Source of the DNA: Octopus vulgaris
Lineage: Eukaryota
Assembly (NCBI GenBank): GCA_951406725.2
Contig: OX597820.1
Coordinates: 117,552,001 to 117,616,000 of the forward strand
Length of the DNA: 64,000 nt
Reading direction: 5' to 3'
Of this stretch, positions 23,101 to 60,095 are shown in pieces. Both the position numbers and the translations under genes were made by a program. The notes beneath the pieces were generated by a model. The model was not told the origin of the DNA. It saw nothing but the letters and a program-made list of their open reading frames with translations, and did no database searches. Numbering within the stretch: position 1 is the stretch's first letter; each line of letters starts with the position of its first letter.

Positions 23101-23695
23101 TCTACGATATATTTCAATGCTTCAAAAACACACACACACACGTCATCATCATTTAATATCCACTTTTCCATGCCAGCATGAGTCAGAGAGAATTTGTTGA
23201 TGCAGATTTTATACAACTTGATGCCCTTCCTGCTGCCAACACTCATCTGAAAGTAAGGTGATATTGCCTAGGACCAGGCATGTTTTCATGGAAGGTTGGA
23301 AATGAAGAACACAGCTTTGATGATGGTGACATTTGTTTGCAATTATCACCTGAAGTGAAGGCAAAGAGACAGTAACACACATACACACATACACATGCAT
23401 ACACACTTGCACTCACATACATACATACATACATTCACATACAGTGGGCTTCTTTCAATTTCTGCCTAACAAATTCTCTCACAAGGCTTAAGTCAGCCTC
23501 AGGCTTTAGAAGACACTTGCCCAAGGTACCATGCATGGGACTGAACCCAGAACAATGTGATTTATATATATATATATATATATAAAGAGAGAGAGAGAGA
23601 GAGAGTTAATCCAAACAAGAAAGCACAAAAAAAACACAACAACGCGAGGACGTGGAAAAAATATAGTATTATTGGACGCTCAGGAAAGAAGAAGG

Positions 23696-23730
23696 GTTTA
23701 ACGTTTCGAGCGGAGCTCTTCGTCAGAAAC
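23696..23730 (-). ncRNA. Minimal type-I hammerhead ribozyme with an intact core
   Basis: GUUU-CUGACGA-A-GAGC(UCC)GCUC-GAAA-CG-UU-AAAC; palindromic AACGUU stem III. Confidence 0.8.
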
Positions 23731-24900: not shown

Positions 24901-25061
24901 CATATATATGTATATATACAACTTATAAATAAGGGCAAACAAAAAAATTTCTAATGCCAAATATGCCGAAAATTGGACATATTGTCCATAACCATTATAA
25001 TTTTTCACAATACGCACACTACTCGAAAAAATCCGACAGAAATTTCTAAAAGATTCCATTA

Positions 25062-25121
25062 TTACCATATCGGACCGATTTCCGGTTTAGTTCGTAAGAA
25101 CCCTCCCTTCATCAGTGATAA
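25062..25121 (-). ncRNA. Type-I hammerhead ribozyme (left arm)
   Basis: UUAUCA-CUGAUGA-AGGGAGGGUUCUUACGAACUAAACCG-GAAA-UCGGUCCGA-UA-UGGUAA. Confidence 0.7.
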
Positions 25122-25267
25122 ATGCGGCAAAGAAATAAGTAAAATACTTACTTATACCCATGGAAGAAGCAAAACACAAAGTCATGAGCACAACTAAGTA
25201 CCCCAAATACATCCCAAATATTTTCCATGGGTATGAGTAAGTATCTGATTTATTTCTTTTGCCACAT

Positions 25268-25327
25268 TTATCACTGACGAAGGGAGGGTTCTTATGATCT
25301 AACCCGGAAATCGGTCCGATATGGTAA
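25268..25327 (+). ncRNA. Type-I hammerhead ribozyme (right arm)
   Basis: UUAUCA-CUGACGA-AGGGA-GGGUU..AACCC-G-GAAA-UCGGUCCGA-UA-UGGUAA. Confidence 0.7.
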
Positions 25328-25558
25328 TAATGGAAATTTTAGAAATTTCTGTCGGCTTTTTTCCGAGTAGCGTGTGTATTGTGAAAAATTATATGGTTAT
25401 GGACAATATGTCCAATTTTCAGCATATTTGGCATTAGAAATTTTTTCGTTTGCCCTTGTTTATAAGTTGTTTATAATTTTAACCTTTAAAGGTATTTTTT
25501 AATATGCTGGCCATTGATAAAATTTTTTTTCAAAAAATTTTATCTGACATTAAATATA

Positions 25559-57288: not shown

Positions 57289-57728
57289 TAAGACAAGCAA
57301 TGGGTCAATAATTGCTAACGTCATTGCCCTTTGACCAATCCTTCATTAACAACGTTTTTCTTCCTTCTACCATCCACTCTTGAACTGCGCCGCTCTGTAG
57401 GCAATTATCTAATTCCAATGCAATTCTCTTGTGCATTGACCTAAACCACTTGATCCAGTAGCCTTGAATTCCATCTGGTCCTGCCACTTTCCAGTTTGGC
57501 AGCTTTGACATCTGTGCAATGACATCTTCTGTTGTTATGTGTACATAGTCCTATCATGGAGCAGCCTCCGGGTGATGGAGTTAAGATCTCATGGAATGAA
57601 TCCACTCAGTACTGTGGTTGTGCAAAACTTCTTGCCCCTAGATGTTATTCCAAAATTGGCGGGTTTCTTCTGCTTTATGAGATGTATTATCTTTTGCATT
57701 TCCTCCTAAGCCCTTAAAAAACTGCCTC

Positions 57729-57784
<56 letters not shown>

Positions 57785-57845
57785 GAGCTGAAACTCAAAT
57801 TGTAACTCTGGATTTTATGTCAATGATTGTCCAAATTATAAAAGT
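57289..57845 (-). mobile_element. R4/Dong-like reverse transcriptase (RT) fragment plus flank (duplicate of 59332-59858)
   Basis: KLPNWKVAGPDGIQGYWIKWF..GRKTLLMKD..NY*PIACL; shares the (TAT)n and the following 60 bp with the other copy. Confidence 0.85.
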
Positions 57846-58387
57846 CAAACACAGGAAGCAAAATCATTGCCTAAGTTCCTCCCTCTAAAATTGCTGGCGT
57901 TTTCTGCCCAAATTTCTAACTCCCATCATTATCATCATCATCATTATTATTTAGGAGTGGCTGTGTGGTAAGTAGCTTGCTAACCAACCACATGGTTCCG
58001 GGTTCAGTCCCGCTGCGTGGCATCTTGGGCAAGTGTCTTCTGCTATAACCCCGAGCCAACCAATGCCTTGTGAGTGGATTTGGTAGACGGAAACTGAAAA
58101 GAAGCCTGTCGTATATATGTATGTATATATATATGTATGTGTTTGAGTGTCTGTGTTTGTCCTCCTAGCATTGCTTGACAACCAATGCTGGTGTGTTTAC
58201 GTCCCCGTTACTTAGCGGTTCGGTAAAAGAGACCGATAGGATAAGTATTGGGCTTACAAAGAATAAGTTCCGGGGTCGATTTGCTCGACTAAAGGCGGTG
58301 CTCCAGCATGGCCGCAGTCAATGACTGAAACAAGTAAAAGAGTAAAAGAAAAGAGAGTTCTATATTTAAGAGATGAGGAATTGTATT

Positions 58388-58549
58388 CATTATTTACATT
58401 ATTTACATTTGATAGATATTTGTTCTCATCTTGTTTGTTGTTAACACAACATTTCGGTTGATGTACCCTCCTGCCTTCATCAGGTGTCTTGGGGAAATTT
58501 GGAAACTGGGTTCTCATTCCTAAGGTATTTTTTGCTGTTGTTGTTGTTA

Positions 58550-58590
<41 letters not shown>

Positions 58591-58916
58591 GCTATTATTA
58601 TTATTACTATTATTATTATTACTATTATTAATAATATTGAGGTCAGTGCATGGAATCGAACTCGGAATCTTGGGGTTAAGAGCAGGCATATGGCATAGCG
58701 GGCTACTAACACCAAAATTCTGAGTTCAATTCCAGGCAGTGACCTAAATAATAATAATAATAATAACATCGAAAAATACCTTAGGAATGAGAACCCAGGT
58801 TCCAAATTTCTCCAAGACACCTGATGAAGGTTGGAGAGTATATCAGGTGAAACATTGTGTTAACAACAAACAAAATGAAGACAAATATCCATCAAATGTA
58901 AATAATGTAAATAATG
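58388..58916. repeat. Head-to-head inverted pair of a tRNA-head + (AAT)n + hammerhead element
   Basis: Arms mirror around about 58690; B boxes GAGTTCGATTCC(-) and GAGTTCAATTCC(+); HHR-like motifs at 58443-58488(-) and 58816-58861(+). Confidence 0.8.
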
Positions 58917-59059
58917 TATTGTAGCCATTCATTTGCTTCTTTATATCTGAATGCATGTCTTTGGAATATCTCAGGGCACACTTAAACATCTTCTGGGGTA
59001 CACCAGTGCATACGGGTGCACCTTTTGAGAACCACTGTCTTAATCAGTGCACACGTGTT

Positions 59060-59770
59060 CTCAGCTATTTCACACATGTTGAGTGTTTCCAAAATCCATG
59101 AATGCAGCAACATGTTGTAAGCCTTTTTTGAAATCTATCCAGGCCATGCATAAGTTTTTTTTTGGTATCGTTTACAGTTCTTCATTATAACCCTGACTAT
59201 CACAGGGTGGTCCTTAGTGCCCTTGGATCCTTTTCAGCATCCCTTTTGTTCTACTGGCAGAAGATTGTTTTCCGCAAGGAACGTATATATTTTCCTTGCG
59301 AGGGTACCTGTCAATAGTTTCCATAGGAGGTTAAGACAAGCAATGGGTCAGTAATTGCCACCCTCATTGCCCTTTGACCGATCTTTCATTAACAACGTTT
59401 TTCTTCCTTCTACCATCCACTCTGGAACTGTACTGTTCTGTAGGCAGTATCTAATTCCAACGTAATTCTCTTGTGCATTGACCTAAACCACTTGATCCAG
59501 TAGCCTTGAATTCCATCTGGTCCTGCCATTTTCCAGTTTGGCAGCTTTGACATCTGTGCAATGACATCTTCTGTTGTTATGCATACATAGTCCTATCATG
59601 GAGCAGCCTCTGGGTGATGGAGTTTGGATCTCATGGAATGAATCCACTCAGCACAGTGATTGTGCAAAACTTCTTGCCCCTAGATGTTATTCCAGAATTT
59701 GGGGGTTTCTTCTGCTTCATGAGATGTATTATCTTTTGTATTTCCTCCTAAGCCCTTAAAAAACTGCCTC
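59060..59770 (-). mobile_element. R4/Dong-like reverse transcriptase fragment
   Basis: PIACLNLLWKLLTG..LLPVEQKGC..GTKD..AWIDFKKAY, with stops and frameshifts. Confidence 0.85.
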
Positions 59771-60095
59771 ATTATTATTATTATTATTATTATTATTGAG
59801 CTGAAACTCAAATTGTAACTCTGGATTTTATGTCAATGATTGTCCAAATTATAAAAGTAAAGGAAAAGCATGGCAGCAAAGTCAGAATATTCATAATTGC
59901 ATCGAAATATGATTAGTCAACAGTACATCAGGACTTGATTGATTGTTGAAAACATATACACCCTACCTTATGTACTTTTCTCTTTGTTTATAAATACAAA
60001 CATCCAACTACACACACACACACGCGCATATAGTTATCTTCATCGTCATCATTTAATGTCCATTTTCCACATTGGTATGGGTTGGACTGTATTGA

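Follow-up and report, generated by a model that had tools for sequence, protein, structure and literature searches.

Among the closest described relatives of the repeat studied here is Poseidon of Anolis carolinensis (PAc), a Penelope-like element (PLE) of the Penelope/Poseidon clade. As the consulted part of PMC11167929 presents it, PAc has a single ORF encoding a reverse transcriptase (RT) together with a GIY-YIG endonuclease at the C terminus, a hammerhead that overlaps the ORF start, tandem pseudo-LTRs, and two classes of 3' ends that amount to an optional tail within the ORF, all of which are found in the octopus element as well. The two differ in that that part of the PAc report mentions neither a tRNA-like head nor a Pol III promoter, in that the PAc ORF starts at stem II whereas the octopus ORF starts ~30 nt before the core, and in that reads ending at the cut site were not found for PAc, whereas the octopus element carries a scar there. 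The minimal hammerheads of metazoan PLEs (PMC4209133, in the sections consulted) share with the octopus one a short stem I, a long stem II with an unpaired 5' base, G10.1-C11.1 and a palindromic stem III, and occur as dispersed single motifs and as opposite-strand pairs 100-700 bp apart, which were ascribed to truncated PLEs; no Pol III head is reported in those sections, and their hammerheads are weak and need dimers, whereas the octopus one is known by sequence. In the Penelope of D. virilis (PMC2377424, consulted in part) the promoter and the start site lie in the pseudo-LTR, so that a partial tandem is needed, and inverted copies flank the element as in octopus, but the promoter is TATA-less, LINE-like and internal, with a downstream element and an intron, whereas the octopus element gives no evidence of an intron.

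Pol III promoters and hammerheads have also been combined or shared in other ways. The SM-alpha SINE-like repeats of Schistosoma (PMC6765202, in part) likewise place a Pol III promoter before a hammerhead, but are non-coding tandem repeats whose monomers are freed by cleavage, whereas the octopus unit is part of a coding element and its copies end far from the cut site. Non-LTR retrozymes (bioRxiv 10.64898/2026.07.22.740005, in part) consist of short units, each a type I hammerhead unit with kinship to the pseudo-LTRs of PLEs, but are head-to-tail tandems with a hammerhead in each unit, unlike the octopus copies, which are solo or head-to-head. The TRIMp3 elements Cassandra, Helenus and Ajax carry a small-RNA-derived Pol III promoter within a terminal repeat, and their proposed origin by insertion of a SINE into the repeat is a further likeness; they are, however, of the LTR class, non-autonomous and <1.3 kb, and the same source argues, in the part consulted, that autonomous elements must use Pol II (PMC10886601). 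A PLE with a tRNA-derived promoter was not found in the literature listings and abstracts that made up our search (Repbase, Dfam and subscription journals lie outside it). An octopus repeat annotation lists Penelope families, and the portion of its main text consulted contains no hammerhead and mentions tRNA only in the names of SINE classes; its supplement may hold the family studied here (PMC13282606).

The window, a stretch of 64,000 nucleotides from Octopus vulgaris (assembly GCA_951406725.2, contig OX597820.1, positions 117,552,001 to 117,616,000), contains two inverted copies of one unit (Table 1). An earlier note, made from the letters of the window, had described them as a head-to-head pair of candidate ribozyme SINEs, each with a tRNA-like segment, an (AAT)n linker and a hammerhead. 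Both arms are present, 87% identical (151/173, E 4e-60), and in each a B-box segment is followed by an (AAT)n linker and then by a minimal hammerhead. The pair is real, but its left arm reaches 30 nt past the start given for it, through a PLE tail, and of the tRNA-like segment the B-box part stands in both arms, whereas the A box is intact in neither: the left head is broken off at ~+33, and the right head lacks 12 nt that make up the 3' half of the A box, the missing piece being displaced into the junction. Between the linker and the hammerhead both arms have ~47 nt that had gone unmentioned. Each hammerhead runs in the order GACAC-CUGAUGA-A-stem II-GAAA-NN-UU-GUGUU, with GAAAUGUU in the left arm and GAAACAUU in the right arm. 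Stem II has mismatches in both window ribozymes, and the right one additionally has an AUU site and a broken palindrome; both are likely dead. Rfam found neither a hammerhead nor a tRNA in the window and ARAGORN found no tRNA there, and the names "hammerhead" and "tRNA" therefore rest on motif anatomy and on the relatives of the pair. No target-site duplication was evident by eye. The window pair is dead and ordinary, two solo pseudo-LTRs from a Penelope element whose head is tRNA-derived.

Table 1. Features of the head-to-head pair, in positions of the window
Feature	Position	Strand	Basis
Left arm: solo pseudo-LTR copy, head 5'-truncated, long 3' end (tail)	58356..58678	-	
PLE tail, ~30-nt extension, left arm only; in ORF-bearing copies it encodes the residues that immediately precede the 'RYG' motif	58356..58385	-	
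Left minimal type I hammerhead; CUGAUGA core 58483-58477, GAAAUGUU 58455-58448; two stem II mismatches	58443..58488	-	
Predicted cut of the left hammerhead	after 58448	-	
ATG opening the family's 838-codon ORF, left copy	58515..58517	-	
Expanded (AAT)n linker, left	58533..58639	-	sequence
tRNA-derived head, 3' half, with B box 58652-58663; A box missing	58640..58678	-	
Scrambled head-to-head junction: 5-nt arm overlap 58674-58678, displaced A-box piece 58674-58683, head start 58685	58674..58698	.	sequence
Right arm: tailless solo pseudo-LTR copy with short 3' end	58685..58918	+	
tRNA-derived head from ~+2; 12-nt deletion through A box; B box 58722-58733	58685..58745	+	
(AAT)n linker, right	58746..58768	+	
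ATG opening the family's ORF, right copy	58787..58789	+	
Right minimal type I hammerhead; core 58821-58827, GAAACAUU 58849-58856; stem II and palindrome damaged	58816..58861	+	

The surroundings of the pair hold other repeats. A different tRNA-type SINE-like repeat (~57,953-58,355, + strand) abuts the left arm with its A-rich tail, and the pair seems to have been inserted at its end. A direct duplication (57,289-57,848 and 59,332-59,861, 89% over 560 nt) brackets the pair and consists of an RT fragment, which we take to resemble Dong/R4 elements, with (AAT)n and flank. Farther away, at 25,050-25,345, lies a second head-to-head pair of another family, with hammerhead-like cores at 25115 (-) and 25274 (+), ~130 nt between the cores and no tRNA head evident, which is likely another Penelope-type repeat. 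A third hammerhead-like core (~23,690-23,730, - strand) has a short stem II and GAAACGUU, and its flanks are unrelated to the studied family.

Across the genome, the unit is almost certainly the pseudo-LTR of an autonomous PLE encoding an RT and a GIY-YIG endonuclease, and not a separate SINE, because it is contiguous with the ORF at both ends. On the upstream side, three loci picked by the hammerhead body have an endonuclease-like ORF end just before the head on the same strand, and a peptide search with the endonuclease C-terminus found the head directly after the stop in 30/30 loci (one of them the query locus), with RT motifs in the longer loci. On the downstream side, the tail runs on into the ORF in loci picked by the ORF 5' end, seven of 30 such loci being continuous from the head to the ORF start (L130, L132, L143, L152, L153, L148 and L155); the last two are true tandem junctions of ORF end, head, linker, hammerhead and ORF start. 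Partial tandems, which form the pseudo-LTR in EN+ PLEs, are present at these two loci and others, and at L312 and L325. In order, the unit comprises the end of the ORF, a 36-nt stretch, the tRNA-like head, (AAT)n, the beginning of the ORF, whose first codons contain the hammerhead, the tail and the remaining ORF. The majority sequence of 128 fragments is a single open frame of 838 aa, its ATG lying ~30 nt ahead of the hammerhead core, with the hammerhead and the tail coding for its start, and it aligns at 57% identity with an 847-aa protein from another source over residues 11-834, including the hammerhead-encoded N-terminus. RVT_1 matches the ORF at E 2e-9, and the ORF is 42-75% identical to RT proteins of like layout, RT then C-terminal GIY-YIG. 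This is the single-ORF layout of EN+ PLEs, in which the C-terminal endonuclease is what we take, from its motifs, to be GIY-YIG (Pfam gave no match on the endonuclease pieces). The element would belong to the Poseidon clade by resemblance. A 42%-identical protein used to look for a second PLE family as an in-genome control returned only the studied family in 30/30 loci.

The earlier note's idea that a Penelope-like RT may mobilize the unit was borne out; its non-autonomous passenger, by contrast, gives way to the autonomous element's own pseudo-LTR, with ORF adjoining at both ends. Head, linker and hammerhead form one genome-wide unit and do not mostly occur apart. The hammerhead body lies within 700 nt of the B box in 77/92 arms, and all 15 remaining arms enter the (AAT)n linker, 4 of them resuming past an insertion and 11 breaking inside the linker. 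Selecting by the hammerhead body gave 29 further loci, of which 27 have a head piece and 23 are accompanied by an inverted partner. The linkage of head and hammerhead is broken by insertions into the linker, which is a hot spot for them. A 540-nt non-coding element is recurrently inserted in it (L009 1676-2215, L027, L169, L239), and RT pieces, presumably Dong-like, interrupt it in L165 and L192. Local segmental duplications, in which near-identical insertions and their flanks lie a few kb to 160 kb apart, were also seen (L225/L224, L181/L180, L008/L020), and duplicate loci of one place were removed before counting.

An intron was considered and dropped. The pseudo-LTR tail (58,356-58,402, - strand) has GT...AG ends whose splicing would lead in frame to the ATG 18 nt after the cut site and so give an in-frame N-terminus, but the frame is already open without splicing and, in that form, can be aligned with P0005; none of the joints listed for the contigs was a GT..AG joint over the tail.

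The 3' ends of the copies fall into two classes ~35 nt apart, 179 short and 186 long, and 80/90 pairs, like the window pair, combine one short and one long end (p 1e-14). The copies end 60-95 nt downstream of the GUU site, inside the ORF, and not at GUU. The bimodal ends and their one-each pairing match PMC11167929, in which the tail is defined by two internal sites where the RT starts, on both target strands, and also PMC8557442, with its inverted 5' copies and one-sided tails of PLEs, as given in the parts consulted. The EN+ PLE arrangement of an inverted 5'-truncated copy and a one-sided tail of 30-40 nt is present, and the head-to-head geometry with a single-arm tail is an already-known Penelope signature. 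The head junctions use micro-palindromes, one junction occurring in 494 exact cases against 452 exact native upstream copies. Substitutions common to the two arms of a pair outnumber those common to arms taken at random (37 v 10), an excess equally expected from fold-back copying or gene conversion; a simple fold-back as the source of the second arm is disfavoured by the asymmetry of the tail and the discordant cut-site gaps described below. A variant in the number of a 9-nt repeat was left out of the analysis because it is confounded with the short ends.

The exact 42-nt hammerhead with GAAACGUU has 1,055 copies in the 2.8-Gb genome and none in the backwards control, so the earlier reading of the two window sequences as CpG-decay products of this form is right. 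With its motif anatomy and these exact intact copies, it is the minimal hammerhead within a pseudo-LTR that is found in EN+ PLEs. The genome may be roughly estimated to hold ~30,000 hammerhead arms (1,055 exact copies divided by 8 of 229). The core bases are intact in 58/229 arms, and Rfam models give the hammerhead no score. At the predicted cut site, 27/227 arms have a 3-nt gap, whereas none of 22 control microhomology entries exceeds 7 (p 5e-4 relative to the next-ranking entry; one of the 22 is a 5-nt gap over the same site); these deletion and variant counts exclude loci picked by hammerhead or body sequence. The gap is equally frequent in solo and ORF-linked arms, is unlinked to diagnostic variants and lies on one arm only in 13/15 pairs. 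An RT that jumped with 2-nt microhomology over a cleaved GUU/GUGUU junction would leave such a gap, which suggests that the hammerhead cuts in vivo; plain slippage at the cut site is also possible. In predicted minimum-energy folds of an intact copy, the catalytic fold is absent from both the monomer and the dimer.

We also asked how the short copies relate to SINEs and retrozymes. The 157 solo and 72 ORF-linked arms are not set apart by any frequent variant (one site reached p 0.01 among 18 tested), and their divergence is alike (94.8 v 94.2%); without diagnostic differences between them, an independently amplifying SINE family is unsupported. The solo head-hammerhead copies could still be transcribed by Pol III and re-mobilized in trans, as a true Penelope-dependent SINE beside the autonomous element. 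They are the majority (82/92 B-box arms lack the ORF), they carry internal A and B boxes in a population of ~30,000 arms, and the extra substitutions shared within pairs allow for many source loci. Against this, besides the missing variants and the equal divergence, the RNA of the anole element must reach ORF +172, past both priming sites (PMC11167929, in the part consulted), a stretch that solo copies do not have, and the upstream TATAA is absent from them as well, which together make such a SINE improbable. As in tRNA-derived SINEs, A and B boxes lie at the 5' end of copies in the family, with the A box broken in both window arms; the family is not a distinct non-autonomous one, however, as the whole unit lies within an autonomous element, and in place of a simple-repeat or A-rich 3' tail the copies end at two ORF-start sites, with (AAT)n internal. 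Nor do they form the short head-to-tail tandems of non-LTR retrozymes, being solo or head-to-head, with tandems that include the ORF. The short copies work like SINE-type products although they belong to neither group.

The tRNA-like head seen by the earlier note is tRNA-derived, with A and B boxes at tRNA positions in the family. Its best match among 21 genomic tRNAs from 20 loci is tRNA-Arg (49/75 and 51/74), a tentative isotype given that no more than six isotypes were represented in the sample. For the 5' ends, we anchored copies on an exact B-box 33-mer, took the first 90 of 924 exact places (chromosomes C1 and C2), and counted without L183 and L225, which reduced 93 arms to 92. The ends of 21 arms lie within the head and those of 61 at -18 to +9, and 10 arms reach the ORF, which corresponds to 0.007, 0.059 and 0.003 ends per nt at risk in head, edge and ORF, a ~20x excess of the edge over the ORF; the edge class includes alignment ends at -13 to -18, which are over-extended by fold-back. 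The same edge is seen in arms with no inverted head (36 of 50) and with no inverted partner (19 of 30). It extends broadly, from -8 to +9 with its mode at +1, and two palindromes lie at the same place. Because the 5' ends concentrate there, the template appears to have usually begun at the head, at ~-6, and the A box follows this start by 13 nt. A tRNA-gene-like start at -12 was rejected: copies reaching -12 nearly all continue towards the ORF, and since 10/10 sites reaching it extend to at least ~-24, there is no separate start at that position. From the distribution of ends, the RNA of the element very probably starts at the head.

The edge could also be a processing site, if RNase P cleaved a long Pol II tandem transcript at the 5' end of the tRNA-like part or if the RT switched at the palindromes. 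The modal 5' end at +1 (11/92), the partial acceptor stem that can form and the 494 exact fold-back junctions at the -6 palindrome fit this. However, the 5' ends of 25/92 arms lie at -2 to -8 and retain native upstream bases, including in arms with no inverted head, ARAGORN builds no normal cloverleaf from the head, and the absence of TTTT described next is left unexplained, so that we consider processing very unlikely.

Since most copies begin at the tRNA-like head, the element is likely transcribed by Pol III. The sense strand of the unit (majority sequence, 2,639 nt) contains no TTTT, for which the probability is 0.03 in a synonymous shuffle and 0.003 with third-position weighting. Nine non-redundant other PLE ORFs from metagenomes (from 45 loci, of which 24 have a frame of at least 200 aa) contain 84 TTTT in 14,808 nt (5.7/kb), with at least three in each, although these controls are distant (24-38% identity) and mostly T-richer; their 3' UTRs are likewise rich in T runs, and no B-box motif was found in the nine ORFs. 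GGGG is as absent as TTTT, with 0 in the majority sequence and 43 v 49 in the copies. Within the same genome, RTE-like fragments have 2.4 TTTT per kb, and Dong-like fragments, mostly from one 350-nt region, are as poor as the copies of the element (0.35/kb v 0.41/kb). The poverty in TTTT is only moderate evidence for Pol III.

Alternatively, Pol II might transcribe the same pseudo-LTR from a promoter of the ordinary PLE kind, and the tRNA-like piece would be a captured passenger lying at the start site by chance. PLE transcripts begin in the pseudo-LTR (PMC2377424, in part), so a 5' edge would be expected anyway; a TATAA at -34 to -30, 24-28 nt upstream of the edge, fits a Pol II start equally; the poverty in T runs is common to the Dong-like fragments; and a coding RNA requires translation, which in the case of Pol III would use an uncapped RNA with a two-codon upstream frame and counts against a Pol III coding RNA. 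What speaks against Pol II is that an intact A box follows the edge by 13 nt or less, the A and B boxes of the family being spaced as in a tRNA, and that TTTT is absent here while frequent in the nine other PLE ORFs and their 3' UTRs. We consider Pol II transcription unlikely. Together, a tRNA-derived head at the usual start of copies and a TTTT-free sense strand suggest something new, a Pol III promoter on a coding retrotransposon. Pol III probably makes the head-started RNA, and there is a somewhat less than even chance that it also makes the full coding RNA; as an overall explanation, we favour on balance a Penelope retrotransposon with a tRNA-derived Pol III promoter in its pseudo-LTR.

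In this favoured model, the head in a tandem array would start the RNA at ~-6 of the tRNA, and the TTTT-free sense strand would permit Pol III read-through. The RT-endonuclease of the element would prime internally at two ORF-start sites ~35 nt apart, as anole Poseidon does in vitro, and copy back 260-300 nt to the RNA 5' end, yielding the short SINE-like copies. Two such reactions, one per target strand, might be joined at their 3' ends via micro-palindromes into a head-to-head pair with one tail, and ORF-bearing copies would come from priming in the second repeat of a read-through RNA. The hammerhead likely cut some templates, with the RT jumping the cut and losing 3 nt.

The use of Pol III is unexpected for a retrotransposon that encodes its own enzyme. 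If Pol III does make the coding RNA, this would break the rule of thumb by which autonomous retrotransposons depend on Pol II (or, as R2 does, on Pol I), and Pol III promoters would no longer be confined to short non-coding elements, the expectation stated in the consulted part of PMC10886601. The location of the promoter, the origin of head-to-head pairs from two priming events at different start sites, and in vivo cutting by a minimal hammerhead would then be testable in one family. For annotation, a large class of apparent SINEs and tRNA pseudogenes in the octopus genome are Penelope pseudo-LTRs.
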